Of a DNA stretch of 15,490 bases, positions 1 to 15,490 are shown in pieces. The stretch comes from a virus (Duplodnaviria; Heunggongvirae; Uroviricota; Caudoviricetes): the IMG/VR virus record IMGVR_UViG_2693429774_000004, positions 1 to 15,490 of that record. The stretch is one strand, 5' to 3'. Below the pieces are notes generated by a model that was not told the origin of the DNA, did not search any database, and saw only the letters and a program-made list of their open reading frames with translations. Made by a program: the position numbers and the translations under genes. Every line of letters begins with the position of its first letter. Position 1 is the first letter of the stretch.

Positions 1-22
1 AAAAACGAGTATTTTTAGTCAT
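1..22 (-). CDS. 5' end of an unidentified ORF running off the left edge (begins MTKNTRF)
   Basis: ATG at 22..20 on the minus strand, preceded by AGGTAAACAGG about 8 nt upstream, lying just downstream of the exo stop. Only 7 codons are in the window. The sequence past the exo stop diverges from what I recall of lambda. Confidence 0.25.
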
Positions 23-89
23 CCTGTTTACCTCTTTCTCAGGAAGTTTAGTCTCCAGGATTCCCGGGGCGGTTCATCGTGAGGATGCG

Positions 90-905
90 TCATCGCCATT
101 GCTCCCCAAATACAAAACCAATTTCAGCCAGTGCCTCGTCCATTTTTTCGATGAACTCCGGCACCATCTCGTCAAAATTCGCCATGTACTTTTCATCCCG
201 CTCAACCACGACATAATGCAGGCCTTCACGCTTCATACGCGGGTCATAGTTGGCAAAGTACCAGGCATCTTTTCGCGTCACCCACATGCTGTACTGCACC
301 TGGGCCATGTAAGCTGACTTTATGGCCTCGAAACCACCGAGCCGGAACTTCATGAAATCCCGGGAGGTAAACGGGCATTTCAGTTCAAGGCCATTGCCGT
401 CACTGCATAAACCATCGGGAGAGCAGGCGGTGCGCATACTTTCGTCGCGATAGATGATCGGGGATTCAATAACATTTACGCCGGAAGTGAACTCAAACAG
501 GGTTCTGGCGTCGTTCTCGTACTGTTTTCCCCAGGCCAGTGCTTTAGCGTTAACTTCCGGAGCCACACCGGTGCAAACCTCGGCAAGCAGGGTGTGGAAG
601 TAGGACATTTTCATGTCAGGCCACTTCTTTCCTGAGCGGGGCTTTGCTATCACGTTGTGAACTTCTGAAGCGGTGATGACGCCGAGCCGTAATTTGTGCC
701 ACGCATCATCCCCCTGTTCGACAGCTCTCACGTCGATCCCGGTAACGATATCCGTCTGATGCGTGAACGTGATGGACGTAACCACCGCGACATGTGTGTA
801 CTGTTCCGCTGGGCCTGCCAGGACAACTTCTGGTCCGGTAACGTGCTGAGTCCGGCCAAACTCCGCGACAAGTGGACCCAGCTCGAAATCAACCGGAACA
901 AGCAA
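90..905 (-). CDS. exoD: Lambda exonuclease (Exo/RedX, YqaJ family) homolog with a replaced N-terminus; possibly a pseudogene
   Basis: ORF-track protein residues about 55-271 ([31 protein letters not shown]...FVFGEQWR) match lambda Exo as I remember it almost residue for residue. The first ~54 codons have no Exo counterpart and are read antisense through the O remnant. Confidence 0.8.
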
Positions 906-980
906 CAGGCTGGCGTGACAGTCGGCAAACCAAAACTCGACCTGACAAACACTGACTGGATTTACGGGGTGGATCTATGA
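696..980 (+). pseudogene. C-terminal remnant of lambda-type replication initiator O; N-terminal DNA-binding domain and ori region absent
   Basis: Translation ends ...[44 protein letters not shown], the C-terminus of lambda O as I recall it. The stop overlaps the P start (ATGA at 977-980). O homology begins only near 745, directly abutting the exo homology on the other strand. Confidence 0.7.
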
Positions 981-1678
981 AAAACATCGCCGCACAGATG
1001 GTTAACTTTGACCGTGAGCAGATGCGTCGGATCGCCAACAACATGCCGGAACAGTACGACGAAAAGCCACAGGTACAGCAGGTAGCGCAGATCATCAACG
1101 GTGTGTTCAGCCAGTTACTGGCAACTTTCCCGGCGAGCCTGGCTAACCGTGACCAGAATGAACTGAACGAAATCCGCCGCCAGTGGGTGCTGGCTTTCCG
1201 GGAAAACGGGATCACCACAATGGAACAGGTTAACGCTGGAATGCGCGTAGCCCGTCGGCAGAATCGACCATTCCTGCCATCACCCGGGCAGTTTGTCGCC
1301 TGGTGCCGGGAAGAAGCATCCGTTACCGCCGGGCTGCCAAACGCCAGCGAGCTGGTTGATATGGTTTACGAGTATTGCCGGAAGCGCGGGCTGTATCCGG
1401 ATGCAGAGTCTTATCCGTGGAAATCAAACGCGCACTACTGGCTGGTTACCAACCTGTATCAGAACATGCGGGCCAATGCGTTGACTGACGCGGAATTACG
1501 GCGCAAGGCTGCCGATGAACTGTCCTGTATGACCGCACGAATTAACCGTGGTGAGGCTATACCTGAACCAGTAAAACAACTTCCTGTCATGGGCGGTAGA
1601 CCTCTAAATCGTGCACAGGCTCTGGCGAAGATCGCAGAAATCAAAGCTAAGTTTGGGCTGAAAGGAGCAAGGGTATGA
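977..1678 (+). CDS. Replication protein P (DnaB helicase loader), lambda gpP homolog, full length
   Basis: 233-aa ORF MKNIAAQMVNFDREQMRRIANNMPEQYDEKPQVQQVAQIINGVF...AKIAEIKAKFGLKGARV is near-identical to lambda P from memory. Start overlaps the O stop; stop overlaps the ren start. Confidence 0.9.
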   Translation: MKNIAAQMVNFDREQMRRIANNMPEQYDEKPQVQQVAQIINGVFSQLLATFPASLANRDQNELNEIRRQWVLAFRENGITTMEQVNAGMRVARRQNRPFLPSPGQFVAWCREEASVTAGLPNASELVDMVYEYCRKRGLYPDAESYPWKSNAHYWLVTNLYQNMRANALTDAELRRKAADELSCMTARINRGEAIPEPVKQLPVMGGRPLNRAQALAKIAEIKAKFGLKGARV

Positions 1679-1977
1679 CGGGCAAAGAGTCAATTATTCA
1701 TTACCTGGGGACTCATAAGAAATTCTGTGCGCAGGACGTTGCCGCGGTAACAGGCGCAACGGTAACCAGCATAAATCAGGCTGCGGCTAAAATGGCGCGG
1801 GCAGGAATCCTAGTCGTTGATGGTAAGGTCTGGCGAACGGTGTATTATCGGTTCGCTACCAGAGAAGAATGGGAAGGAAAGGTGAGCACGAATTTGATTT
1901 TTAAGGAGTGTCGCCAGAGTGCCGCGATGAAACGGGTATTGAGGGTATATAAAAGAACATCAATGGGTACACAATGA
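1675..1977 (+). CDS. Ren-like protein (lambda Ren homolog) with altered C-terminus
   Basis: MTGKESIIHYLGTH...VWRTVYYRFATREEWEGKVSTNLIFKECRQSAAMKRVL matches lambda Ren. The last ~12 residues differ because the AT-rich island starts near 1945. ATG overlaps the P stop (ATGA). Confidence 0.8.
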   Translation: MTGKESIIHYLGTHKKFCAQDVAAVTGATVTSINQAAAKMARAGILVVDGKVWRTVYYRFATREEWEGKVSTNLIFKECRQSAAMKRVLRVYKRTSMGTQ

Positions 1978-2044
1978 TGAAACAGGTGAGTTGAGTTCAA
2001 ACTGTAGTACAATTCTCTCCAGTTTGAACAGGAAAGAATATGCT

Positions 2045-2377
2045 ATGAACCCTTATATTTATCTTGGTGGTGCAATACTTGCAGAGGTCATTGGTACAAC
2101 CTTAATGAAGTTTTCAGAAGGTTTTACACGGTTATGGCCATCTGTTGGTACAATTATTTGTTATTGTGCATCATTCTGGTTATTAGCTCAGACGCTGGCT
2201 TATATTCCTACAGGGATTGCTTATGCTATCTGGTCAGGAGTCGGTATTGTCCTGATTAGTTTACTGTCATGGGGATTTTTCGGCCAACGGCTGGACCTGC
2301 CAGCCATTATAGGTATGATGTTGATTTGTGCCGGTGTGTTGGTTATTAATTTATTGTCACGAAGCACACCACATTAA
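2045..2377 (+). CDS. emrE: Small multidrug resistance (SMR) efflux transporter EmrE
   Basis: Internal Met of the 1991..2377 ORF gives the 110-aa protein MNPYIYLGGAILAEVIGTTLMKFSEGFTRLWPSVGT...LLSRSTPH, recognised as EmrE, with four hydrophobic helices and the conserved membrane-embedded Glu in helix 1. Confidence 0.95.
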   Translation: MNPYIYLGGAILAEVIGTTLMKFSEGFTRLWPSVGTIICYCASFWLLAQTLAYIPTGIAYAIWSGVGIVLISLLSWGFFGQRLDLPAIIGMMLICAGVLVINLLSRSTPH

Positions 2378-2406
2378 AATAATTTGTTTCTAAACGACTA
2401 AAATAT

Positions 2407-2450
2407 GGAGGCTCTTATATTTATATGAGCCTCGTTTTATGCTTTTTGTT
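2407..2450 (+). terminator. Probable intrinsic terminator downstream of emrE
   Basis: GGAGGCTC (2407-2414) pairs with GAGCCTC (2427-2433) around a 12-nt AT loop, followed by GTTTTATGCTTTTTGTT. Confidence 0.5.
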
Positions 2451-2631
2451 AATGTCTTTATTTTTTATGTATTCTTTTGTGCTTTCAAGATTATGGCGTA
2501 AGAAAATTGCAATACGATTATTGTTGTATATTCAAGATAATGTGACCTTAATTGTCTTTTTAAATAAAAATTAAACAAAAATTATATCCCACCACTAAGG
2601 TTTATAAAAGCATACGTTAGCAGGTGTCACC

Positions 2632-4158
2632 ATGAAAAAAGCCATAGCATATATGCGATTTTCATCACCAGGTCAGATGTCTGGTGACTCATTAAACCGA
2701 CAGAGAAGACTTATTGCTGAATGGTTAAAGGTAAATAGTGATTATTATCTTGATACCATAACATATGAAGATTTAGGATTAAGTGCATTCAAAGGAAAGC
2801 ATGCACAATCAGGAGCTTTTTCGGAATTTTTAGATGCTATAGAGCATGGTTATATATTGCCAGGAACTACATTGTTAGTTGAAAGTCTGGACAGACTTTC
2901 AAGAGAAAAAGTCGGTGAAGCGATTGAACGTCTGAAATTGATTTTGAATCACGGTATTGATGTTATAACTCTTTGCGACAATACAGTCTATAATATTGAC
3001 TCTTTGAATGAGCCATATTCATTAATAAAAGCCATACTTATAGCACAAAGGGCAAATGAAGAAAGCGAGATAAAGTCAAGTCGGGTTAAATTATCATGGA
3101 AGAAAAAACGGCAGGATGCAATGGAATCAGGTACGATTATGACGGCGTCTTGTCCGAGATGGCTCTCCTTAGATGACAAAAGAACGGCTTTTGTTCCAGA
3201 CCCCGACAGGGTGAAAACTATTGAGCTAATTTTTAAACTCAGGATGGAAAGGCGCTCATTGAATGCAATAGCCAAGTATTTAAATGATCATGCTGTAAAG
3301 AATTTCTCAGGAAAAGAAAGTGCATGGGGACCTTCTGTAATTGAAAAATTATTAGCGAATAAAGCTCTGATAGGTATATGCGTACCTTCATATCGTGCAA
3401 GAGGGAAAGGGATAAGTGAAATCGCTGGCTATTATCCCAGAGTTATATCAGATGATTTGTTTTACGCTGTACAGGAAATTCGGTTGGCACCTTTTGGTAT
3501 TAGCAATAGTAGCAAGAATCCTATGCTAATAAATCTACTTCGAACAGTTATGAAGTGTGAGGCTTGTGGTAATACCATGATTGTTCATGCGGTATCTGGA
3601 AGTTTGCATGGCTATTATGTTTGTCCGATGAGAAGATTACATCGATGTGACAGGCCATCAATAAAAAGAGATTTGGTTGATTATAATATCATTAATGAAT
3701 TGCTTTTTAATTGTAGCAAAATTCAACCAGTTGAAAACAAGAAAGATGCTAATGAAACTTTAGAGTTAAAAATTATTGAGCTTCAGATGAAAATTAATAA
3801 TTTAATCGTTGCATTGTCTGTCGCGCCTGAAGTTACCGCTATAGCAGAGAAAATAAGACTATTAGATAAGGAATTACGAAGGGCTTCGGTATCATTGAAA
3901 ACTTTGAAGAGTAAAGGTGTAAATTCATTCAGTGATTTTTATGCTATTGACTTAACCAGTAAAAATGGACGAGAGTTATGCCGTACACTTGCCTATAAAA
4001 CATTCGAAAAAATCATAATTAATACGGATAATAAAACCTGTGATATCTATTTTATGAATGGCATTGTTTTTAAACACTATCCTTTAATGAAAGTAATATC
4101 CGCCCAGCAGGCGATAAGTGCTCTCAAATATATGGTTGATGGTGAGATTTATTTCTAA
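2632..4158 (+). CDS. ybcK: Large serine recombinase (resolvase/invertase-type catalytic domain, recombinase domain, zinc ribbon, C-terminal coiled coil)
   Basis: 508-aa ORF. N-terminus AIAYMRFSSPGQ fits the serine-recombinase active-site motif (Y-x-R-x-S). Cys cluster CEACGNTM...YYVCPMRRLHRCD resembles the zinc ribbon of large serine recombinases. Lys/Glu-rich C-terminal segment. Low-GC coding. Confidence 0.88.
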   Translation: MKKAIAYMRFSSPGQMSGDSLNRQRRLIAEWLKVNSDYYLDTITYEDLGLSAFKGKHAQSGAFSEFLDAIEHGYILPGTTLLVESLDRLSREKVGEAIERLKLILNHGIDVITLCDNTVYNIDSLNEPYSLIKAILIAQRANEESEIKSSRVKLSWKKKRQDAMESGTIMTASCPRWLSLDDKRTAFVPDPDRVKTIELIFKLRMERRSLNAIAKYLNDHAVKNFSGKESAWGPSVIEKLLANKALIGICVPSYRARGKGISEIAGYYPRVISDDLFYAVQEIRLAPFGISNSSKNPMLINLLRTVMKCEACGNTMIVHAVSGSLHGYYVCPMRRLHRCDRPSIKRDLVDYNIINELLFNCSKIQPVENKKDANETLELKIIELQMKINNLIVALSVAPEVTAIAEKIRLLDKELRRASVSLKTLKSKGVNSFSDFYAIDLTSKNGRELCRTLAYKTFEKIIINTDNKTCDIYFMNGIVFKHYPLMKVISAQQAISALKYMVDGEIYF

Positions 4159-4356
4159 ATAATGATCTCGGATTTTAAGTTATGCTATGGTGATAAAGTG
4201 CAAGACAGAATTAATTATCTTTGACGAAACTTAATGGGTAATTACTTTGTTTGCTCCCACAAGCGAGTTTTGTACGGCTGTATTGGGGTAGTAAATGAGC
4301 TATACAATCTTAATCATTTGTTAGGTGAGAACTCTTGGTCGCAGATTCAAATACTG

Positions 4357-4406
4357 AAAATACGTGACAAATTATTATGAGCAAAATGGTGTATGTCACG
4401 TATTTT
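4357..4406. promoter_or_regulatory. Perfect 13-bp inverted repeat (AAAATACGTGACA / TGTCACGTATTTT) with 24-bp spacer in the ybcK-ybcL intergenic region
   Basis: Arms at 4357-4369 and 4394-4406 are exact reverse complements. Sits about 220 bp upstream of the ybcL start. Candidate operator or RNA stem-loop. Confidence 0.4.
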
Positions 4407-4622
4407 GAATGGTAGGTTAAAAAATAACACCGACTTTCGTAGGTATTACTAATAATAAAGCAGAGTTTTTAGATAGTATCAATGTGCTTTGTGTATATTG
4501 TGGCAAATAATTGGGTTGGGGGTACAATTGTGATTGCTTTTGCATAAACATTGCGCCTTTATGCATAATGAGATAAAGGAATATCAAATAAAATAACGAT
4601 AGGTCATAACAAAGAGGTTTTT

Positions 4623-5174
4623 ATGAAAACACTTATCGTTTCAACTGTATTGGCATTCATAACATTTTCTGCGCAGGCTGCAGCATTTCAGGTCACTAGT
4701 AATGAAATAAAAACAGGAGAGCAACTTACAACGTCTCATGTCTTTTCTGGATTTGGGTGTGAAGGTGGTAATACATCGCCCTCATTAACCTGGTCTGGTG
4801 TTCCTGAAGGTACCAAAAGCTTTGCCGTAACTGTATATGATCCAGATGCACCTACAGGCAGTGGTTGGTGGCATTGGACTGTTGTTAATATTCCAGCAAC
4901 AATAACATATTTGCCCGTTGATGCAGGGAGACGTGATGGAACAAAACTGCCGACTGGTGCTGTTCAAGGCCGAAATGATTTTGGCTATGCTGGGTTTGGT
5001 GGCGCATGTCCTCCTAAAGGAGATAAACCACATCATTACCAGTTTAAAGTATGGGCTCTAAAAACTGAAAAGATTCCTGTAGATTCTAACTCCAGCGGAG
5101 CGTTAGTTGGTTATATGCTTAATGCTAATAAAATCGCAACCGCTGAGATAACACCAGTTTATGAGATAAAGTAG
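4623..5174 (+). CDS. ybcL: Periplasmic PEBP/RKIP-family protein YbcL with signal peptide
   Basis: 183-aa ORF with N-terminal signal peptide (MKTLIVSTVLAFITFSAQAAA) and PEBP-like core (VTVYDPDAPTGSGWWHWTVVNIP...HHYQFKVWAL). Preceded by GAGG. Confidence 0.9.
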   Translation: MKTLIVSTVLAFITFSAQAAAFQVTSNEIKTGEQLTTSHVFSGFGCEGGNTSPSLTWSGVPEGTKSFAVTVYDPDAPTGSGWWHWTVVNIPATITYLPVDAGRRDGTKLPTGAVQGRNDFGYAGFGGACPPKGDKPHHYQFKVWALKTEKIPVDSNSSGALVGYMLNANKIATAEITPVYEIK

Positions 5175-5183
5175 GGTGAGAGT

Positions 5184-5981
5184 ATGCTGGCAAGAGGTAA
5201 GACTAACTTAAAGATCGAAGAAATACGGATGCATAAACATCATGAGATTCATAGGGTTAAGCCTCTTATGCCAGCTTTGTGTCGTATCCGTCAGGGAAAG
5301 AAAGTTATCAATTGGGAGACGCATACTTTAACTGTTGATAATAATCAAATAATATTATTTCCTTGTGGTTATGAATTTTATATTGAGAATTATCCTGAAG
5401 CAGGGCTTTATCTTGCAGAAATGCTTTACTTACCCATTGATTTAATTGAGAGTTTCCAAAAACTTTATACGGTAACTGATCAAATACGTAACAAAACAAG
5501 TTTCTTTTTACCTCAGAATCCTGAGTTAATATATTGTTGGGAGCAACTAAAAACATCTGTTTCCCGAGGCTTCTCAACTAAAATTCAGGAGCACTTAGCA
5601 ATGGGCGTTCTACTTTCGTTAGGAGTGAATCATGTTAATCATTTACTTTTATCATATAGTAAACAATCATTGATAAGTCGTTGTTATAACCTGCTGCTAT
5701 CCGAACCCGGCACAAAATGGACAGCAAACAAGGTTGCTCGATATCTCTACATTTCTGTTTCTACATTACATCGCCGTCTAGCAAGCGAGGGGGTAAGTTT
5801 CCAAAGTATACTGGACGATGTGAGGTTAAATAATGCGTTGTCTGCTATACAAACGACGGTAAAACCTATAAGCGAGATTGCCAGAGAAAATGGTTATAAG
5901 TGTCCTTCTCGTTTTACTGAAAGATTTCATAATCGTTTTAATATAACACCAAGAGAGATAAGAAAAGCTTCCAGAGAGTAA
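5184..5981 (+). CDS. ybcM: AraC/XylS-family transcriptional regulator
   Basis: 265-aa ORF with a C-terminal AraC-type double helix-turn-helix ([21 protein letters not shown]...[32 protein letters not shown]). Low-GC coding. Confidence 0.85.
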
Positions 5982-6045
5982 AAGTGTTTTAAGAAGGAGC
6001 AATTCTATCGATTTTGATTTTGGGAAATCAACACGGCATAATTAT

Positions 6046-6074
6046 GTCACCGGAGCCTGAACAACTCCGGTGAC
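6046..6074 (+). terminator. Stem-loop at the right boundary of the AT-rich island (possible weak terminator of ybcM)
   Basis: GTCACCGGAG (6046-6055) pairs perfectly with CTCCGGTGAC (6065-6074) around a 9-nt loop, followed by TTCTGCG, only a weak U-tract. Confidence 0.3.
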
Positions 6075-6097
6075 TTCTGCGCTAAACGGGGACGTTT

Positions 6098-6199
6098 ATG
6101 CGCACATACAATCCAAACTCTCTTCTCCCTTCACAGATGCAGAAATGCACCTGCAATTCTTTGCATCTAGCGTTTGACCTCTGCGGAGGTGAAGCGTGA
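6098..6199 (+). CDS. ylcH: Small 33-codon ORF upstream of and overlapping the ybcN start (possibly ylcH)
   Basis: ATG at 6098 to TGA at 6197-6199 ([33 protein letters not shown]). Stop overlaps the ybcN GTG start as GTGA. The name is from memory of a similarly sized K-12 ORF; coding status is uncertain. Confidence 0.3.
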
Positions 6200-6651
6200 A
6201 CCTCTCACAAGACGGCATCAAATTACATCGCGGCAACTTCACCGCTATCGGTCGGCAGATCCAGCCTTATCTGGAGGAGGGCAAATGCTTTCGCATGGTG
6301 CTTAAACCGTGGCGTGAGAAACGCAGTCTTTCCCAGAATGCACTCAGCCACATGTGGTACAGCGAAATCAGTGAATACCTCATCAGCAGGGGTAAAACGT
6401 TCGCCACTCCAGCTTGGGTAAAAGATGCTCTCAAACACACATATCTCGGTTATGAAACCAAAGACCTGGTTGATGTCGTAACCGGTGATATCACCACTAT
6501 CCAGTCGTTACGCCATACCTCCGATCTTGATACCGGAGAGATGTATGTCTTCCTGTGTAAGGTTGAAGCCTGGGCGGTGAATATTGGCTGCCACCTGACT
6601 ATTCCGCAGAGCTGCGAGTTCCAGCTGCTCCGCGACAAGCAGGAGGCGTAA
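6196..6651 (+). CDS. ybcN: NinB/Orf-family recombination protein (lambda NinB homolog)
   Basis: 151-aa ORF from GTG at 6196 with GGAGG 6 nt upstream. Central [16 protein letters not shown] region resembles the lambda NinB core. Stop overlaps the ninE ATG (TAATG). Confidence 0.85.
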
Positions 6652-6821
6652 TGGCTACACCGCTTATTCGTGTCATGAACGGACACATCTACAGAGTATC
6701 AAATCGTCGTAAGCGTAAGCCTGAGCTGAAGCCATCCGAAATACCAACACTGCTCGGATATACCGCTAGCCTGGTTGATAAAAAATGGTTGCGACTGGCA
6801 GCAAGGAGGAATCATGGCTGA
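6651..6821 (+). CDS. ninE: NinE-family small protein
   Basis: 56-codon ORF translated by hand ([56 protein letters not shown]). Coupled to ybcN upstream and overlaps ybcO downstream. Too short for the ORF track. Confidence 0.7.
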   Translation: MATPLIRVMNGHIYRVSNRRKRKPELKPSEIPTLLGYTASLVDKKWLRLAARRNHG

Positions 6822-7104
6822 TTTGAGAAAAGCAGCGCGTGGTCGGGAATGCCAGGTAAGAATCCCTGGCGTATGTAATGGCAATTCTGAAACGTCTGTA
6901 CTGGCACATATCCGGCTGGCTGGATTGTGCGGTACCGGTATCAAACCGCCAGACCTGATTGCCACCATTGCATGTTCTGCCTGCCACGACGAAATCGACC
7001 GCCGCACACATTTTGTCGATGCTGCATATGCAAAAGAATGCGCGCTGGAAGGTATGGCGAGAACACAGGTTATCTGGCTGAAAGAGGGGGTTATTAAGGC
7101 GTGA
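6814..7104 (+). CDS. ybcO: YbcO (DUF1364) putative zinc-dependent nuclease
   Basis: 96-aa protein from the internal Met of the 6775..7104 ORF ([29 protein letters not shown]...), with AGGAGGA 5-11 nt upstream. Contains paired Cys motifs. Stop overlaps the rusA GTG start. Confidence 0.85.
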
Positions 7105-7463
7105 ATACCTACAGTATCACATTACCCTGGCCTCCGAGCAATAATCGCTATTACCGCCATAATCGCGGGCGCACGCACGTCAGTGCAGAGGGGCAGGCAT
7201 ACCGCGATAACGTCGCCCGAATCATTAAAAGCGCAATGCTGGATATCGGCCTGGCTATGCCTGTGAAAATCCGCATTGAGTGCCACATGCCGGATCGCCG
7301 TCGCCGTGACCTGGATAATCTGCAAAAAGCCGCTTTTGACGCACTCACTAAAGCAGGTTTCTGGCTGGATGATGCTCAGGTCGTTGATTACCGCGTTGTG
7401 AAGATGCCTGTTACCAAAGGTGGGAGGCTGGAACTGACCATCACCGAAATGGGGAATGAATGA
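7101..7463 (+). CDS. rusA: Holliday junction resolvase RusA
   Basis: 120-aa protein [37 protein letters not shown]...[10 protein letters not shown], recognised as RusA. GTG start. Confidence 0.92.
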
Positions 7464-7600
7464 TGTTTGAGTTTAATATAGCAGAACTTCTTCGCCACCG
7501 CTGGGGGCGTCTGCGCTTATATCGTTTCCCCGGTTCTGTTTTGACCGATTACCGAATACTGAAGAATTACGCCAAAACCCTGACAGGAGCAGGAGTATGA
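7460..7600 (+). CDS. ylcG: Small nin-region protein (YlcG-like)
   Basis: 46-codon ORF ([46 protein letters not shown]). ATG overlaps the rusA stop (ATGATG). Hand translated. Confidence 0.55.
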
Positions 7601-7685
7601 AGTCAGAGATAACAATCAACTAATACTGTTTTATTGATTTTTGCTTGTAATTGGCGTTCTGGTCTGATTTTTGTGGAGTAAGTTG

Positions 7686-8069
7686 ATGCGTGATATTCAG
7701 ATGGTTCTTGAGCGTTGGGGAGCGTGGGCGGCTAATAATCATGAAGATGTGACCTGGTCGTCCATTGCCGCCGGTTTTAAGGGATTAATTCCTTCAAAAG
7801 TAAAATCTCGCCCGCAATGTTGTGACGATGACGCGATGATCATTTGCGGGTGCATGGCCCGTCTGAAAAAGAACAACAGCGATTTGCACGATTTATTAGT
7901 AGATTATTATGTAGTTGGTATGACATTCATGTCACTGGCAGGTAAGCATTGCTGCTCTGATGGTTATATCGGGAAAAGGTTACAGAAGGCTGAGGGCATA
8001 ATTGAAGGGATGTTAATGGCATTAGATATCCGGTTAGAGATGGATATCGTTGTTAATAACTCTAATTAA
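7686..8069 (+). CDS. quuD: Late-gene antiterminator Q
   Basis: 127-aa protein from the ATG at 7686 ([26 protein letters not shown]...). Cys-rich segment [16 protein letters not shown]...KHCCSDGY is consistent with a Q-type zinc-binding antiterminator. Sits at the nin/late boundary. The ORF track begins at an upstream TTG (7671). Confidence 0.85.
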
Positions 8070-8094
8070 TACGCCAATTATTTACTAAAAGTTA

Positions 8095-8262
8095 TTAAAA
8101 ATGGGGCGTTGAAACGCCCCCAAAAATAAAGGGTAATATATAACAGAAGGTTTGTATAGTTAGAAGCAAGGTTGTGCTTCTAAAGGAAGTGGCTTGAGGG
8201 AGCCACTTATATGTTGGGGAGGCAAAGCCTCCCACAACATATCTTTTAGTAATCAAATTAGA
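8095..8262 (-). ncRNA. ipeX: Candidate small RNA from the nmpC 3' region (possibly IpeX-like), ending at a minus-strand intrinsic terminator
   Basis: On the minus strand the 8103-8120 hairpin is followed by ATTTTTAATAAC, a canonical terminator about 140-160 nt past the nmpC stop. I recall an sRNA named IpeX mapping beside nmpC in DLP12, but I cannot confirm its exact coordinates or strand from memory. Confidence 0.3.
8103..8247 (+). promoter_or_regulatory. Cluster of four stem-loops between quuD and nmpC: candidate late-promoter leader/qut region with terminator
   Basis: Stems at 8103-8120 (GGGGCGTT/AACGCCCC), 8162-8181 (AGAAGCA/TGCTTCT), 8187-8208 (AAGTGGCT/AGCCACTT) and 8211-8240 (ATGTTGGGGAGGC/GCCTCCCACAACAT, one bulge). 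The last is followed by ATCTTTTAG on the plus strand. Confidence 0.4.
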
Positions 8263-9340
8263 ACTGGTAAACCATACCTACAGCAACGATATCATCGGTA
8301 GCAACGCCAGATGCTTTCGTGAAATCGCTCTTATCAATCAGGTTGATTTTGTAGTCAACAAAAGTGGACATATTTTTGTTGAAGTAATAGGTTGCACCTA
8401 CATCAACATATTCAACCAGGTCCTGATCACCCCAAACACCCAAGTCTTTTCCTTTAGAATGCAGGTAAGCAACGGATGGACGCAGGCCGAAGTCGAACTG
8501 ATATTGTGCAACAGCTTCGAAGTTTTGTGCTTTGTTGGCAATATGGTTATTACCAAAAACAGTCATGTTCTGGGTTTCAGAATAGGTGGTGGCCAGATAG
8601 ATGTTGTTCGCATCATATTTCAGACCAGCTGCCCATACTTCAGCATTTTGACCAGAAGCATTCAGACCGTTGTTACCGTAGATAACCTGATTATTAGTGC
8701 GATCAGATTTAGCATAGGTTGCACCTACACCGAATCCTTCATACTCATAAGTAGTGGAGAAACCGAAACCATCACCATTAGCTTCAGTTACGTCAGTGCG
8801 GTCATTTTTACCCTGATACTGAGCAGCAAAGTTCAGACCATCAACCAGACCAAAGAAGTCGTTGTTACGATAAGTTGCAACACCAGTGGTGCGACCAGTC
8901 ATGAACACATCTGTTTGAGTCCAAGTGTCACCACCGAATTCTGGCAGGACGTCAGTCCACGCACCGATGTCGTATGCTACACCGTAGTTACGGCCGTAAT
9001 CGATGGAGCCGTAGTCACCGAATTTCAGGCCAGCGAAGGCAAGACGGGTTTTATCTTTGGAGGAACCTTGAGATTCAGCGCGGTTGCCTTTGAATTCATA
9101 TTCCCACTGACCGAAACCAGTCAGTTGATCGTTGATTTGGGTTTCACCTTTGAAGCCAAGACGGGCATAAGTAGTATCACCATCATCTGCATCATTAGAG
9201 GAGAAGTAGTGCTTAGCATTAACTTTCCCGTACAGATCCAGCTTGTTACTGTCTTTATTATAAATTTCAGCTGCCTGAGCAGACATCGCCATCAGTACTG
9301 ATGCAGCTACAGCAGAAATTGCCACTGTTAATTTTTTCAT
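8258..9340 (-). CDS. nmpC: Outer membrane general porin NmpC (OmpD/OmpC family), apparently intact
   Basis: 360-aa ORF with signal peptide [23 protein letters not shown], porin-typical Gly/Tyr/Asp-rich beta-strand composition and the conserved C-terminal motif VGMVYQF. Confidence 0.92.
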
Positions 9341-9928
9341 CGTGAGCCCTTTTTTTTGAACTATTATTAAAAAATGATGTCACTGCGCGATAAATATTCA
9401 TCTAATCAATGTGATTATTTCAAGATGTAAGTTTTAGTTTCTCATTTAATTTGTGAAGTAGATCTCTATTTTTATCTGAACTTTTTCTATCGAAACCTAT
9501 TTATGGCTCTTATTTGAACAAAAATAAACCTATTAGCTAATTTATATTAATGGCTGTTATTTATGGGGGGTCTATAATTCGATGGTTTAATTTAAATTAA
9601 CTAAAAATAACGCCGGAAATTATTTATTGGTTATTTGTTGAGGTTTTCTTATGTATTTGTGGTGGTGTTTTGAACACTCGGTAGCATTCTCATAAATATC
9701 ATTCAGTGGTTTACGTACGTAAAAAATTGGTTATGCTGTTAAGAGTGGTTACTTCGTCACACAGCTTAAACCCGCCGTCGAGCTGGTTTTTCCATTTTTT
9801 GAGTCTCGATATTAGCTGATAACTCAATACCTGAGTTATTCACTGACTCCGAGTCTGTTACGTTTCTGCTTTTTTGCGATACGTTGTATTCCCTCAATTT
9901 ACACCCGCTTTGTCTGCGAGGTGGGGTT

Positions 9929-10144
9929 ATGAAATCCATGGATAAGTTAACAACGGGTGTCGCCTATGGCACCTCAGCAGGTAGTGCCGGTTACTGGTTT
10001 TTACAGCTGCTCGATAAAGTCACGCCCTCACAGTGGGCAGCAATAGGTGTGCTGGGTAGCCTGGTATTTGGCCTGCTGACGTACCTGACAAACCTTTATT
10101 TCAAGATTAAAGAAGATAAGCGCAAGGCTGCGAGAGGTGAATAA
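9929..10144 (+). CDS. essD: Class II holin / pinholin (phage 21 S-like) with dual-start motif
   Basis: 71-aa protein [71 protein letters not shown]. Met1 and Met4 give the classic antiholin/holin dual start; two TMDs. The ORF track starts at an upstream in-frame Met. Stop overlaps the rrrD ATG. Confidence 0.9.
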
Positions 10145-10641
10145 TGCCTCCATCATTACGAAAAGCCGTTGCTGCTGCTATTGGTGGCGGAGCAATTGCT
10201 ATAGCATCAGTGTTAATCACTGGCCCAAGTGGTAACGATGGTCTGGAAGGTGTCAGCTACATACCATACAAAGATATTGTTGGTGTATGGACCGTATGTC
10301 ACGGGCATACAGGAAAAGACATCATGCTCGGTAAAACGTATACCAAAGCAGAATGCAAAGCACTCTTGAATAAAGACCTTGCCACTGTCGCCAGACAAAT
10401 TAACCCATACATCGAAGTCGATATACCGGAAACAACGCGCGGCGCTCTTTACTCATTCGTTTACAACGTGGGTGCTGGCAATTTCAGAACATCGACGCTT
10501 CTTCGCAAAATAAACCAGGGCGATATCAAAGGCGCATGTGATCAGTTACGTCGCTGGACATATGCTGGCGGTAAGCAATGGAAAGGTCTCATGACTCGTC
10601 GTGAGATTGAGCGTGAAATCTGTTTGTGGGGTCAGCAATGA
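10144..10641 (+). CDS. rrrD: SAR (signal-anchor-release) endolysin, lysozyme of the phage 21 R type
   Basis: 165-aa ORF. N-terminal Gly/Ala-rich weakly hydrophobic segment ([20 protein letters not shown]) typical of SAR domains, followed by a lysozyme catalytic region. Confidence 0.92.
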
Positions 10642-11099
10642 ACAGAGTAACCGCGATTATCTCCGCTCTGGTTATCTGCATCATCGTCTGCCTGTCATGG
10701 GCTGTTAATCATTACCGTGATAACGCCATTACCTATAAAGCCCAGCGCGACAAAAATGCCAAAGAACTGAAGCTGGCGAACGCGGCAATTACTGACATGC
10801 AGATGCGTCAGCGTGATGTTGCTGCGCTCGATGCAAAATACACGAAGGAGTTAGCTGATGCGAAAGCTGAAAATGATGCTCTGCGTGATGATGTTGCCGC
10901 TGGTCGTCGTCGGTTGCACATCAAAGCAGTCTGTCAGTCAGTGCGTGAAGCCACCACCGCCTCCGGCGTGGATAATGCAGCCTCCCCCCGACTGGCAGAC
11001 ACCGCTGAACAGGATTATTTCACCCTCAGAGAGAGGCTGATCACTATGCAAAAACAACTGGAAGGAACCCAGAAGTATATTAATGAGCAGTGCAGATAG
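10638..11099 (+). CDS. rzpD: Spanin inner-membrane subunit Rz (i-spanin)
   Basis: 153-aa protein from the ATG at 10638 ([26 protein letters not shown]...), with an N-terminal TMD and coiled-coil periplasmic region. Start overlaps the rrrD stop. Confidence 0.9.
10858..11040 (+). CDS. rzoD: Spanin outer-membrane lipoprotein subunit Rz1 (o-spanin), embedded in the +1 frame of rzpD
   Basis: 60-aa [27 protein letters not shown]... with a lipobox (VVGC) and proline-rich mature region ([15 protein letters not shown]), lying entirely inside rzpD. Confidence 0.85.
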
Positions 11100-11130
11100 A
11101 GCTGCCCATATCGATGGGCAACTCATGCAA

Positions 11131-11424
11131 TTATTGTGAGCAATACACACGCGCTTCCAGCGGAGTATAAATGCCTAAAGTAATAAAACCGAGCAATCCA
11201 TTTACGAATGTTTGCTGGGTTTCTGTTTTAACAACATTTTCTGCGCCGCCACAAATTTTGGCTGCATCAACAGTTTTCTCCTGTCCAATTCCCGAAACGA
11301 AGAAGTGATGGGTGATGGTTTCCTTTGGTGTTACTGCTGTCGGTTTGTTTCCAACAGTAAACGTCTGTTGAGCACATCCTGTAATAAGCATTGCCAGAGC
11401 GGCAGAAAACAACATTTTTTTCAT
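11131..11424 (-). CDS. borD: Bor-family outer-membrane lipoprotein (serum-resistance protein homolog)
   Basis: 97-aa protein from the internal Met (MKKMLFSAALAMLITGCAQQTFTV...EARVYCSQ) with lipobox LITGC; near-identical to lambda Bor from memory. The ORF track starts 16 codons upstream. Confidence 0.9.
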   Translation of the reverse strand: MKKMLFSAALAMLITGCAQQTFTVGNKPTAVTPKETITHHFFVSGIGQEKTVDAAKICGGAENVVKTETQQTFVNGLLGFITLGIYTPLEARVYCSQ

Positions 11425-11786
11425 CTTATTATCCTGCATTGTTAAAAACGGCAGAATCCTATGTGACAACAATTAAACGATAGTTAAATGGATTGATGAA
11501 AATTAAAACTATATAGGTGTACGCTCAGACTATTGGAGGAAGTTGGGGACACTCAGAATCCTGTGGAATGAAATAAACCGGTCTATCCGTCTATTACCCT
11601 TTTAGCTGCGCTGTATCGTCGCCGTATTCCCGCATTAACCATGACCGTAGCCCGACGGGGAATTCCTTCTGCGTGAGTGTGCGGGAATAATCAAAAACGA
11701 TGCACACCGGGTTTTACTGTGCTGACAGACGCAGGGTTACCCTCATAGTCGCTTTTCCGGTGCGATGGTGGAAGAAACCGGGATGT

Positions 11787-11981
11787 TCATCCATCATCAC
11801 TTTGGATTGATGTATATGCTCTCTTTTCTGACGTTAGTCTCCGACGGCAGGCTTCAATGACCCAGGCTGAGAAATTCCCAGACCCTTTTTGCTCAAGAGC
11901 GATGTTAATTTGTTCAATCATTTGGTTAGGAAAGCGGATGTTGCGGGTTGTTGTTCTGCGGGTTTTGTTCTTCGTTGACAT
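11787..11981 (-). CDS. ylcI: Small ribbon-helix-helix-like protein near the prophage right end (YlcI-like)
   Basis: 64-aa ORF MSTKNKTRRTTTRNIRFPNQMIEQINIALEQKGSGNFSAWVIEACRRRL... Basic N-terminus, then a strand-helix-helix pattern compatible with an RHH fold. The flanking DNA matches the lambda right end as I recall it. Confidence 0.5.
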   Translation of the reverse strand: MSTKNKTRRTTTRNIRFPNQMIEQINIALEQKGSGNFSAWVIEACRRRLTSEKRAYTSIQSDDG

Positions 11982-12180
11982 GAGGTTGCCCCGTATTCAG
12001 TGTCGCTGATTTGTATTGTCTGAAGTTGTTTTTACGTTAAGTTGATGCAGATCAATTAATACGATACCTGCGTCATAATTGATTATTTGACGTGGTTTGA
12101 TGGCGTAGATGCACGTTGTGACATATAGATGATAATTATTATCATTTTGCGGGTCCTTTCCGGCGATCCGACAGGTTACG

Positions 12181-12192
12181 GGGCGGCGACCT
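12181..12192 (+). other. cosN: lambda-type 12-nt cohesive-end sequence
   Basis: GGGCGGCGACCT, preceded by ...CCGACAGGTTACG and followed by CGCGGGTTTTCGCTATTTATGAAAATTTTCCGG, i.e. the junction of lambda right and left ends as I recall them. Confidence 0.85.
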
Positions 12193-12369
12193 CGCGGGTT
12201 TTCGCTATTTATGAAAATTTTCCGGTTTAAGGTGTTTCCGTTCTTCTTCGTCGTAACTTAATGTTTTTATTTAAAATACCCCCTGAAAAGAAAGGAAACG
12301 ACAGGTGCTGAAAACGAGCTTTTGGGCCTCTGTCGTTTCCTTTCTCTGTTTTTGGCCGTGGAATGAACA
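12193..12369 (+). other. cosB region (terminase small-subunit binding sites and IHF site) between cosN and the nohD start
   Basis: Position and near-identity to the first ~180 nt of the lambda left end. Individual R3/R2/R1 sites not mapped. Confidence 0.6.
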
Positions 12370-12511
12370 ATGGAAGTCAACAAAAAGCAGCTGGCTGACA
12401 TTTTCGGTGCGAGTATCCGTACCATTCAGAACTGGCAGGAACAGGGAATGCCCGTTCTGCGAGGCGGTGGCAAGGGTAATGAGGTGCTTTATGACTCTGC
12501 CGCCGTCATAA
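12305..12511 (+). CDS. ybcW: 68-codon ORF overlapping cosB and the 5' end of nohD (YbcW-like); doubtful coding status
   Basis: ORF present in the track. I recall a 68-aa ybcW annotated at this position in K-12, but it lies in a different frame across cosB and nohD and the same DNA in lambda is not considered coding. Confidence 0.15.
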   Translation: MLKTSFWASVVSFLCFWPWNEQWKSTKSSWLTFSVRVSVPFRTGRNRECPFCEAVARVMRCFMTLPPS

Positions 12512-12915
12512 AATGGTATGCCGAAAGGGATGCTGAAATTGAGAACGAAAAGCTGCGCCGGGAAGTTGAAGAACTGCGGCAGGCCAGCGAGACAGATCTC
12601 CAGCCAGGGACTATTGAGTACGAACGCCATCGACTTACGCGTGCGCAGGCCGACGCACAGGAGCTGAAAAATGCCAGAGACTCCGCTGAAGTGGTGGAAA
12701 CCGCATTCTGTACTTTCGTGCTGTCGCGGATCGCAGGTGAAATTGCCAGTATTCTCGACGGGATCCCCCTGTCGGTGCAGCGGCGTTTTCCGGAACTGGA
12801 AAACCGACATGTTGATTTCCTGAAACGGGATATCATCAAAGCCATGAACAAAGCAGCCGCGCTGGATGAACTGATACCGGGGTTGCTGAGTGAATATATC
12901 GAACAGTCAGGTTAA
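12370..12915 (+). CDS. nohD: Terminase small subunit Nu1 homolog (cos-binding), full length
   Basis: 181-aa ORF MEVNKKQLADIFGASIRTIQNWQEQGMPVLRGGGKGNEVLYDSAAVIKWYAERDAEIENEKLRREVEELRQ...GLLSEYIEQSG, essentially lambda Nu1, with a winged-HTH N-terminus. Confidence 0.93.
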   Translation: MEVNKKQLADIFGASIRTIQNWQEQGMPVLRGGGKGNEVLYDSAAVIKWYAERDAEIENEKLRREVEELRQASETDLQPGTIEYERHRLTRAQADAQELKNARDSAEVVETAFCTFVLSRIAGEIASILDGIPLSVQRRFPELENRHVDFLKRDIIKAMNKAAALDELIPGLLSEYIEQSG

Positions 12916-13135
12916 CAGGCTGCGGCATTTTGTCCGCGCCGGGCTTCGCTCACTGTTCAGGCCGGAGCCACAGACCGCCGTTGAATGGGCGGATGCTAAT
13001 TACTATCTCCCGAAAGAATCCGCATACCAGGAAGGGCGCTGGGAAACACTGCCCTTTCAGCGGGCCATCATGAATGCGATGGGCAGCGACTACATCCGTG
13101 AGGTGAATGTGGTGAAGTCTGCCCGTGTCGGTTAA
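12890..13135 (+). pseudogene. N-terminal 81-codon stub of terminase large subunit A
   Basis: [81 protein letters not shown] matches the lambda gpA N-terminus, then stops at 13133-13135 where homology ends. Start overlaps the nohD 3' end as in lambda. Confidence 0.85.
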
Positions 13136-13185
13136 CCGCGCTGACAGACAATACGCAGGGGGCAGCAGGTCTTGAGTTATACGAG

Positions 13186-14088
13186 GTGTATAACAACGGA
13201 TATCCAACAGCGTATGGAAATATCATTCACCTGAAAGGGATGACAGCCGTTGGCGAAGGTGAGTTACTCATCGGCTGGAGTGGTACAAGCGGTGCTCATG
13301 CTCCGGCATTTATTCGTTCACGACGGGATACGACCGACGCAAACTGGTCGCCGTGGGCGCAGCTTTACACCTCGGCTCATCCTCCTGCAGAGTTTTATCC
13401 AGTCGGTGCACCAATCCCGTGGCCATCAGATACCGTTCCGTCTGGTTATGCCCTGATGCAGGGGCAGACTTTTGACAAATCTGCATACCCGAAACTTGCA
13501 GTTGCTTATCCGTCAGGCGTGATCCCTGATATGCGTGGCTGGACGATTAAGGGCAAGCCCGCCAGTGGTCGGGCCGTATTATCTCAGGAACAGGACGGCA
13601 TTAAATCGCACACCCACAGCGCCAGCGCATCCAGTACGGATTTGGGGACGAAAACCACATCGTCGTTTGATTACGGAACCAAATCCACGAATAACACCGG
13701 GGCGCATACCCATAGTATTAGCGGGACCGCAAATAGTGCCGGCGCGCACCAACACAAGAGTTCCGGTGCATTTGGTGGCACGAACACGAGCATTTTCCCT
13801 AATGGTTATACCGCGATTTCAAATCCAAGCGCGGGGATTATGAGCACAACAAGCGGTAGTGGCCAGACTCGTAATGCAGGGAAGACATCATCAGATGGTG
13901 CTCATACCCACTCGCTGTCCGGCACTGCTGCAATCGCAGGCGCACATGCACATACTGTCGGTATTGGTGCTCATACGCACTCCGTTGCGATTGGCTCACA
14001 TGGACACACCATCACCGTTAACGCTGCGGGTAACGCGGAAAACACCGTCAAAAACATCGCATTTAACTATATTGTGAGGCTTGCATAA
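13186..14088 (+). pseudogene. C-terminal fragment of a side tail fibre gene (lambda Stf / T4 gp37-like distal domain)
   Basis: 300-aa ORF ending ...[14 protein letters not shown] like lambda Stf, with seven His-x-His motifs. No N-terminal tail-attachment region. The frame is open from about 13117; the track start at 13186 is GTG. Confidence 0.85.
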
Positions 14089-14669
14089 TGGCATTCAGAA
14101 TGAGTGAACAAGCACGGACCATAAAAATTTATAATCTGCTGGCCGGAACTAATGAATTTATTGGTGAAGGTGACGCATATATTCCGCCTCATACAGGTCT
14201 GCCAGCAAACAGTACCGATATTGCACCACCAGATATTCCGGCAGGCTTCGTGGCTGTTTTCAACAGTGATGAGGCATCGTGGCATCTCGTTGAAGACCAT
14301 CGGGGTAAAACGGTTTATGACGTGGCTTCCGGCGACGCGTTATTTATTTCTGAACTCGGTCCGTTACCGGAAAATGTTACCTGGTTGTCGCCGGGAGGGG
14401 AATATCAGAAGTGGAACGGCACAGCCTGGGTGAAGGATACGGAAGCAGAAAAACTGTTCCGGATCCGGGAGGCAGAAGAAACAAAAAACAGCCTGATGCA
14501 GGTAGCCAGTGAGCATATTGCGCCACTTCAGGATGCTGTAGATCTGGAAATCGCAACGGAGGAAGAAACCTTGTTGCTGGAAGCCTGGAAAAAGTATCGG
14601 GTGTTGCTGAACCGTGTTGATACATTAACTGCACCGGATATTGAATGGCCAGTAGCACCTATAGGGTAA
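14088..14669 (+). CDS. tfaD: Tail fibre assembly protein Tfa
   Basis: 193-aa [57 protein letters not shown]... near-identical to lambda Tfa from memory. ATG overlaps the stf stop (TAATG). Confidence 0.9.
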
Positions 14670-14754
14670 ATTCGTAATGATTACCTAAATACGTTATTCT
14701 TTTGTTAAAAAAGTGATTTTGCTATAGGTAGGGAGTATGTTCTTGGATTAAGAA

Positions 14755-14786
14755 TAAAAAATCGCCATGAAAGAGCTTCATGGCGA
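14755..14786 (-). terminator. Perfect 10-bp stem-loop with adjacent A6/T6 tract, terminator-like in minus orientation
   Basis: TCGCCATGAA (14762-14771) pairs with TTCATGGCGA (14777-14786) around a 5-nt loop. AAAAAA lies immediately upstream on the plus strand, which is a U-tract after the hairpin on the minus strand. Confidence 0.3.
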
Positions 14787-15418
14787 GTACATAAACGTAC
14801 AAAATGTGATGAAAGTAGAGTGGCGTAAGCCACTATATTAAGATATGACAATAGCGAAGAAAAGTAAATAACATTTCATGGACGTTTAATTGTTAATTAT
14901 AAAAACTAGAGTGCCCGATATTGTTTATCTTGCTTTAAAATAATGTACTCAAACCAAATTTTTGAGCTAAAAGCTCAAATAATATAAATGCAATAATAAT
15001 GTTTAATAAGACAATTAGCTTGCTTTGTATTTTCATTTCGGAATACTGTTAAGTAACTTTGATGACCCTAACAATAGATCGGAATTTTCTTAGAGTCAAT
15101 GGTCACTGTTTTTGCTTGCAAAGCAAATGTTTTGGTGGTTATAAGTTGTCTTAATATAGTCACGCATGCAACTTGTTCCATGCGGAGATTAAAGATTGGA
15201 ATATAACGCGAAGATGGAATTAAATTACATTTGCAATAATCAATTTATTATTACTCAATAATTACCGATATTATTATTGTAAATTAATCATTAGAGTGCA
15301 AAAAGAAATGTAACGGCAAAATAAGAGGACGATAGCTGAGAAAAAAGCGTGCTTTCCCAATCTGGGGCAAATCACGTCTGAATGACACCTGAAAACAGGT
15401 GGTAGCCTCAAGAAGGCT

Positions 15419-15490
15419 GGTGATGCTGCCAACTTACTGATTTAGTGTATGATGGTGTTTTTGAGGTGCTCCAGTGGCTTCTGTTTCTAT
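15419..15490 (+). mobile_element. IS1 left end (terminal inverted repeat and start of insA), truncated by the window edge
   Basis: GGTGATGCTGCCAACTTACTGATTTAGTGTATGATGGTGTTTTTGAGGTGCTCCAGTGGCTTCTGTTTCTAT matches the IS1 terminus as I remember it. insA appears to start at the GTG at 15474 (V/M-A-S-V-S-I...). Confidence 0.85.

Follow-up and report, generated by a model that had tools for sequence, protein, structure and literature searches.

A deletion scar joining 5'-truncated exo to the 3' end of O in defective lambdoid prophages of Escherichia coli

In bacteriophage lambda, pL drives exo, whose start overlaps the bet stop, and the C-terminal region of the replication initiator O contacts P. 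Lambda is intact and viable, with pL, pR, cI, N and four ori iterons. Like the locus described below, the cryptic prophage DLP12 of E. coli K-12 joins two 5'-truncated genes, exo on the minus strand and a replication gene on the plus strand (exoD-peaD, b0539/b4508). The whole MG1655 element, which lies at argU, is annotated as intD, xisD', exoD', 'peaD, renD::IS3 and emrE onward. A defective prophage at icd that has persisted after deletions with McrBC-type cargo also recalls e14 and other cryptic prophages described as 'grounded' (PMC6379469). Such persistence is usually explained by the loss of dangerous inducible functions (Ramisetty and Sudhakari 2019, PMC6379469).

The undeleted DLP12-like and icd-site prophages, for instance those of strain 442/2 at argU (L002) and of GCA_024856525 at icd (L015), have the same P, exo, ren, emrE and ybcK modules as the DNA analysed here and are the best models of its state before deletion. 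Relatives with an identical P run in the order exo (226 aa)-bet-gam-kilR-variable cargo-S24/XRE repressor-YdaS-YdaT-O (339 aa)-P-ren-emrE, and one relative that retains the interval sits at icd with a similar left arm (loci L009-L012 and L015 were examined). Exo starts with MTPDIILQR in all the intact relatives, overlapping the bet stop. These prophages differ from lambda in the immunity module and have no rex. In contrast to the DNA analysed here, they keep bet, gam, kilR, the S24/XRE repressor, YdaS/YdaT and the 339-aa O.

The window, that is, the whole 15,490-nucleotide stretch of DNA that was analysed, belongs to a DLP12-like lambdoid prophage of E. coli, of which it covers the early-right and late region, as indicated by its ORF list, by Pfam and by the PGAP annotation of relatives. 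From the left, it contains truncated exo (minus strand), a 3' piece of O, P, ren, emrE, ylcJ, ybcK, ybcL and ybcM, followed by ybcN, ninE, ybcO, rusA, ylcG, quuD, an intact nmpC/ompC-like porin gene (minus strand), essD and rrrD, and then by rzpD, bor/iss, ylcI, nohD, a terminase fragment, a tail-fibre fragment and tfa. Complete genomes matched the window at 99.4-99.7% identity over 743-13134 and 743-15490, respectively. The features that bear on the join between exo and O are as follows.

1-76, minus strand: terminal 76 bases of an IS3-family insertion sequence, with the transposase orfA start at 22 (MTKNTRF...)
90-744, minus strand: 5'-truncated exo (lambda exonuclease, YqaJ family), with codons 10-226 and the stop retained
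743-744, no strand: deletion junction, where TA is common to both parents and the breakpoint is ambiguous by 2 bp
745-905, minus strand: antisense-O extension of the exo frame, codons 1-54 of the ORF, codon 54 straddling the junction
745-980, plus strand: 3' fragment of O (replication initiator), lambda codons 222-299, 78 codons
977-1678, plus strand: replication protein P, full length at 233 aa, 97.9% identical to lambda P
1675-1977, plus strand: ren, 100 aa, 87% identical to lambda Ren over 92 residues
1969-2049, no strand: switch of parent prophage, from the icd-site scar element to an attLambda-site element, located by mismatch maps
15419-15490: left end of IS1, running to the end of the window

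The IS3-family end at 1-76 is 100% identical to the IS copies in loci L016, L020 and L028 and 97% identical to that in L029, where the PGAP annotation reads IS3 family transposase. The terminal inverted repeat of this IS lies at about 52-76, and these bases match its opposite inverted repeat too. The insertion point lies 14 nt past the exo stop, where a DUF1317/orf60a-like gene is disrupted. Related prophages have identical copies of this IS at other sites, and so do Stx1a phages. Beyond exo the window has 89 bases only, occupied by the IS, so that the left arm lies outside our view. Since both of its ends are the ends of repeats, the window looks like a short-read contig broken at IS elements. 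Among the other genes, the nmpC/ompC-like porin gene (8258-9340, minus strand) is intact and encodes 360 aa (Porin_1, E 3e-152); the K-12 DLP12 copy is broken by IS5. Rfam gave a full-length match to IS009 (228 bits, 14431-14629, plus strand) inside the tail-fibre assembly gene and nothing else at the gathering threshold on the window.

BLASTN of window 1-2100 against lambda gave two alignments. In the first, window 76-744 corresponds to lambda 31334-32002 (exo) on the minus strand, ungapped and at 98.1% nucleotide identity; in the second, window 743-1950 corresponds to lambda from 39348 onward (the 3' end of O, all of P and most of ren) at 93.8%. The flanking genes as a whole are 94-98% identical to those of lambda at the nucleotide level, with exo, O, P and ren in the same order and orientation. 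The undeleted prophage of strain 442/2 gave the identical two-block pattern. In three-line displays of the window against each of these two references, the parent changes at 744/745: the exo parent is followed up to ...GATCCCGGTA and the O parent from TAACGATATCC... onward. The original prediction had exo running to about 744 and O from about 745, which these alignments make exact to the base. They also fix the breakpoint against lambda exo and O, with TA as the only microhomology. The partial 'replication protein' pseudogene that PGAP annotates in strain FORC 064 begins exactly at the junction base.

Both flanks run base for base into exo and O, colinear with the intact relatives. The 2-bp overlap is expected by chance about 1 in 16 times, unlike the flank homologies, which are far beyond chance. 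In the three-line displays there was no IS sequence, inverted repeat, att-like core or foreign sequence at the junction. Illegitimate joining is indicated because nothing foreign, no IS and no att sequence lies at the join and because two ambiguous bases are about what chance gives. Deletion by a mobile element or a site-specific recombinase (IS-adjacent, or by aberrant Int or YbcK) had to be weighed here, as IS elements have been active in this region, with IS3-family copies at several positions and IS1 at the right end, and the serine recombinase ybcK is encoded nearby. A join that holds no IS, inverted repeat or att-like core makes this origin very unlikely, and we rejected IS-mediated and site-specific deletion on that ground.

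The lambda-equivalent gap is 7,347 bp (lambda 32003-39349). In lambda this interval contains bet, gam, kil, cIII, ea10, ral, sieB, N, nutL, the pL operators, rexB, rexA, cI, the pR operators, cro, nutR, cII and the first 221 codons of O with ori; the four ori iterons (39034-39118) fall inside it. The equivalent interval in the closer undeleted E. coli prophages is 4,401-6,850 bp. Because these closest relatives carry a different immunity module, the real loss was probably 4.4-6.9 kb rather than the 7.35 kb of lambda. TBLASTN of the window gave no significant match to lambda bet, gam, kil, cIII, N, rexA/B, cI, cro or cII (best E 0.02-0.2), nor to the S24/XRE repressors, YdaS, YdaT, KilR, Bet and Gam of the relatives' module. 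With the other lambda proteins of the gap and with the relatives' SecB/MqsA cargo, cro-like HTH protein and 339-aa O, only the exo, O, P and ren pieces were found in the window. Two Bet proteins, as possible annealase partners of Exo, had no match in the window either (best E 0.23), and no repeat family with three or more copies, as an iteron-like array would form, is present in it. A bet/gam or cI homologue elsewhere, which would have spoken against the deletion, was thus not found in the window by TBLASTN. The claim that everything lambda has between exo and O is absent was right in that the interval is gone by both TBLASTN and BLASTN. Its list of lambda genes (cIII, N, rex, cI, cro, cII) was borrowed by analogy; the functional classes lost match, and the genes actually lost were probably not lambda's own.

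We surveyed 5,426 complete E. coli genomes with a 301-bp probe across the junction. The probe was covered end to end in 23 genomes, 22 of them at 99.7% identity or more and one at 97%, and about 3,470 further complete genomes matched one half of it only. The copies mostly have 0-1 substitutions in 301 bp. The exact 94-aa ORF that crosses the junction on the plus strand is indexed in 636 blocks of a public assembly collection. No record among 50,697 phage records spans the junction, 213 of them matching one half, and the exact 40-mer of the junction is absent from all GTDB species-representative genomes. The absence from phage records fits non-viability. In all 14 assemblies whose context was examined, the scar lies at icd, and the left arm is constant: int, xis, DUF4222, TraR-like, DndB-like (DGQHR), DUF1317 and exo'. 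The likeness to K-12 e14 lies in this icd site and in the pattern of decay.

The right arms of the icd-site scar elements show at least three further nested deletions. One variant retains P, ren, emrE and ybcK onward to the tail-tip and tail-fibre genes; another has an IS21 insertion; and in another P ends at window-equivalent 1075, where a tail-fibre fragment is fused to it. Since one junction is shared and the right arms differ, the deletion between exo and O is older than the right-arm losses. McrBC-type genes follow the right arm in all the icd-site scar assemblies examined. As separate observations, the DndB-like (DGQHR) gene lies about 1.2 kb to the left of exo', between the TraR-like gene and DUF1317 (L001, L004, L005, L008 and others), and the icd-site scar elements have an AAA-ATPase/McrC pair at their right end; it is possible that these are defence cargo retained in the remnant.

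The appearance of the window as a short-read contig with an IS at both ends, together with a suspicious switch of parent at 1969-2049, would suit an assembly artefact, a draft contig in which parts of two prophages had been joined by mistake. For 744/745 this reading is refuted by the recurrence of the junction in independent complete genomes: it is identical in the 23 complete genomes and in many assemblies, in a constant gene context, and window 76-1968 differs from the icd-site scar elements by 2 mismatches only. The chance that it is an artefact is close to nil. As the identical junction recurs in independent genomes and is absent from the phage records, it is a real, inherited deletion scar.

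The second join in the window is of another kind. Window 2050-15490 has 2 mismatches to the prophage at the attLambda site (ybhC/bioA) of Z1323HEC0011-type strains, which shares with the window its terminase and tail truncations and its IS1. Both parent prophages reside together in several complete genomes. The hybrid ren/emrE join (1800-2330) is in none of the 5,426 complete genomes, the best match being 99.2% over 531 bp, and the whole window was found intact in no complete E. coli genome searched. Either real recombination or a mis-join during assembly may account for the hybrid join, and the 13 kb to the right of ren may belong to another prophage. The attLambda-site parent retains a repressor, a cro-like gene, YdaT and the full 339-aa O, the last of which presumably implies an origin. 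This prophage also has a scar of its own: in L003 (CP148385, 2049-3209) an integrase without its N-terminus abuts gam without its C-terminus, and xis through exo as well as bet are lost there. The scar and the orphaned P and ren are solid in spite of the parent switch. The claim that the DNA can neither replicate by itself nor be repressed by its own cI accordingly needs dividing: TBLASTN and the repeat search found no cI homologue or ori in the window, and as a statement about the whole element the claim may not hold, as the right part may belong to the repressor-bearing attLambda-site prophage.

As shown in the list above, exo has lost its 5' end. The missing part is the first 26 nt, encoding MTPDIILQR, and residues 10-226 of Exo were found by TBLASTN (E 2e-150). 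The full YqaJ domain is present (Pfam PF09588, E 3.7e-29, profile positions 2-149 of 150). The catalytic residues D119, E129 and K131 are conserved, and so are W24, R28, R45, K49, K76, L78, E85 and R137, whose roles we took from PMC7496540. The remnant differs from lambda Exo at 5 positions, all conservatively. Judged by this comparison, all residues known to be relevant to function are intact and the catalytic core is complete.

The exo frame stays open across the junction and forms a 271-aa ORF (90-905, minus strand, TTG start) of 54 antisense-O codons and 217 exo codons. The proposal that its first 54 or so codons are antisense O was borne out, 745-905 being the O coding strand reversed. 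That the frame is open for 271 codons might suggest that the 54 codons are a native alternative N-terminus of Exo, or that the join is a natural module boundary of a functional phage. The test for a native N-terminus of the exo family was negative: the 54 codons have nearly the nucleotide sequence of the O 3' end, other lambdoid phages and prophages match window 743-2000 at 93.8-97.5% identity with their O-P-ren segments, and the O part is matched at 100% in many E. coli genomes. The Pfam match in the 271-aa ORF begins at residue 69 and residues 1-68 have no Pfam family; the intact relatives have the MTPDIILQR start instead. A module boundary is contradicted by the phage records, none of which holds the junction. 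Either version of this explanation is hardly credible.

Upstream of the junction, the only canonical starts in the exo frame are TTG 905 and GTG 785. Neither is preceded by a Shine-Dalgarno sequence, there is no ATG in this frame at or above the junction, and the next in-frame ATG is Met53 of Exo. The native start overlapping bet is missing from the window, so that the gene is not complete. Annotation pipelines have treated the remnant in different ways. PGAP, under the name 'lambda exonuclease family protein', calls it as 219 aa or 227 aa with ATC starts at window 749 and 773 (L001 20150 and L005 12174), and other callers give a 174-aa exo product starting at Met53. These choices of start are inconsistent, homology-driven and poorly supported. 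A crude consensus scan of 1-2700 for promoters and terminators gave nothing relevant to exo or P, with no promoter-like site facing exo in 745-2460. On these signals the 271-aa 'chimeric exo' is best regarded as a mechanical ORF without a credible start signal. Because pL and the bet-overlapping start are gone and no promoter-like site faces exo in 745-2460, we infer that the remnant is expressed little or not at all. Lambda Exo with an N-terminal His tag is active (PMC6393309). Since the core is undamaged and such an N-terminal tag is tolerated, an exo product initiated upstream of the junction by way of read-through transcription could in principle be active; the Met53 form would lack the 5'-phosphate pocket.

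On the plus strand, O has lost 221 codons. TBLASTN found O residues 221-299 (E 9e-49), residue 221 being mismatched. The O frame is open upstream as far as GTG 696 within antisense exo, which gives the 94-aa ORF, called by several pipelines, of 16 antisense-exo codons and the last 78 residues of O. This ORF has no Pfam domain, the full O of the relatives matching PF04492, and the N-terminal iteron-binding domain (Phage_rep_O) is lost from O in the window. PGAP annotates 744-980 as a partial 'replication protein', 'incomplete; missing N-terminus', that is, as a pseudogene. The stop of O overlaps the start of P as ATGA. P matches PF06992 (Phage_lambda_P, E 8e-62), and the exact protein is widespread, being indexed in 10,626 blocks. 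The ren gene is annotated 'protein ren' or 'phage exclusion protein Ren' in relatives. As had been predicted, P and ren are intact and stand without an initiator or origin: TBLASTN recovered both at full length, and the O N-terminus and the iterons are absent. As far as can be judged from the DNA of the window, both genes are orphaned, with no pR, no initiator and no cis origin.

An exo core and a P gene without damage leave room for domestication, in which an altered Exo, or the 94-aa O stub coupled to P, would be expressed and benefit the host. The stub lies within the region that contacts P and shares the ATGA overlap with the P start, and the scar persists in many genomes while the right arm decays. 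A more specific version is that the 94-aa ORF, expressed at a low level by coupling to P, might act as a decoy for P or disturb the O-P-DnaB assembly of superinfecting lambdoid phages. If this were true, carriers would gain exclusion at the level of replication, and retention of the junction during erosion of the right arm would be accounted for. Set against domestication are the lack of a promoter, Shine-Dalgarno sequence or ATG for either product, and the presence of carriers that deleted most of P yet kept the scar; with so few substitutions among copies of the probed 301 bp (one copy at 97% apart), the intactness may equally be youth. K-12 DLP12 has lost still more of exo and half of P. 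We therefore regard domestication as improbable, and the decoy as slightly more doubtful again.

The deletion in K-12 DLP12 resembles that in the window but has other end points, as compared from the RefSeq annotation and by alignment to the window. As in the window, the recombination, immunity and ori interval is wholly lost and the join has a 2-bp overlap, and DLP12 shares the right arm of the window (ren-emrE-ylcJ-ybcK-ybcL-ybcM-...-nohD). Its breakpoints are at window-equivalent 369/1367 and not at 744/745 (L027 2585-3275). K-12 retains about the last 93 codons of exo (exoD, equivalent to window 76-369), and its peaD starts at window 1367, which leaves out the O stub together with codons 1-130 of P; ren is split by IS3. 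The K-12 element is at argU and the window-type scar is at icd. From these alignments, the K-12 scar would be either an independent event or a later deletion that erased an earlier scar.

The explanation we favour, with a probability of about 0.93, is a simple internal deletion closed by illegitimate end joining at a 2-bp coincidence, which left an inert remnant. The deletion took out all the DNA from codon 9 of exo, which reads leftward, to codon 222 of O, which reads rightward, and homology-independent joining would have fused exo to O at the chance TA overlap. In relatives this stretch carries bet, gam, kil, accessory genes, the repressor, cro/cII-type regulators, pL and pR, as well as the N-terminal domain of O with the ori iterons. 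Both divergently transcribed genes have lost their 5' ends, as a deletion between them predicts. The exo remnant keeps a complete catalytic core, but pL, the start codon coupled to bet and the partner protein Bet are all gone, and what is left of O is a C-terminal stub of 78 residues that has no start itself. By analogy with lambda, the genes of the remnant would be essentially untranscribed and untranslated. In lambda terms, Kil, early transcription dependent on N and the firing of the origin in situ all go with a deletion of this kind. The loss of inducible replication and of killing functions may then have let the remnant persist. The 2-bp overlap by itself does not reveal the mechanism.

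The scar is ordinary prophage decay, a further example of a well-known kind, and PGAP already flags the pseudogene. The finding matters little beyond correct annotation and the marking of lineages. For annotation, exo here should be given as a pseudogene or remnant and not as a 271-aa protein, current callers being divided among three poorly supported starts. As a shared feature, the junction can conveniently mark one clonal lineage of defective prophages at icd and gives an order to their decay, with the deletion between exo and O first and the losses in the right arm later. Together with the scar of K-12 DLP12, it points to repeated loss of one recombination, immunity and origin block in lambdoid prophages, a pattern that selection against inducible replication and killing functions would be expected to produce.
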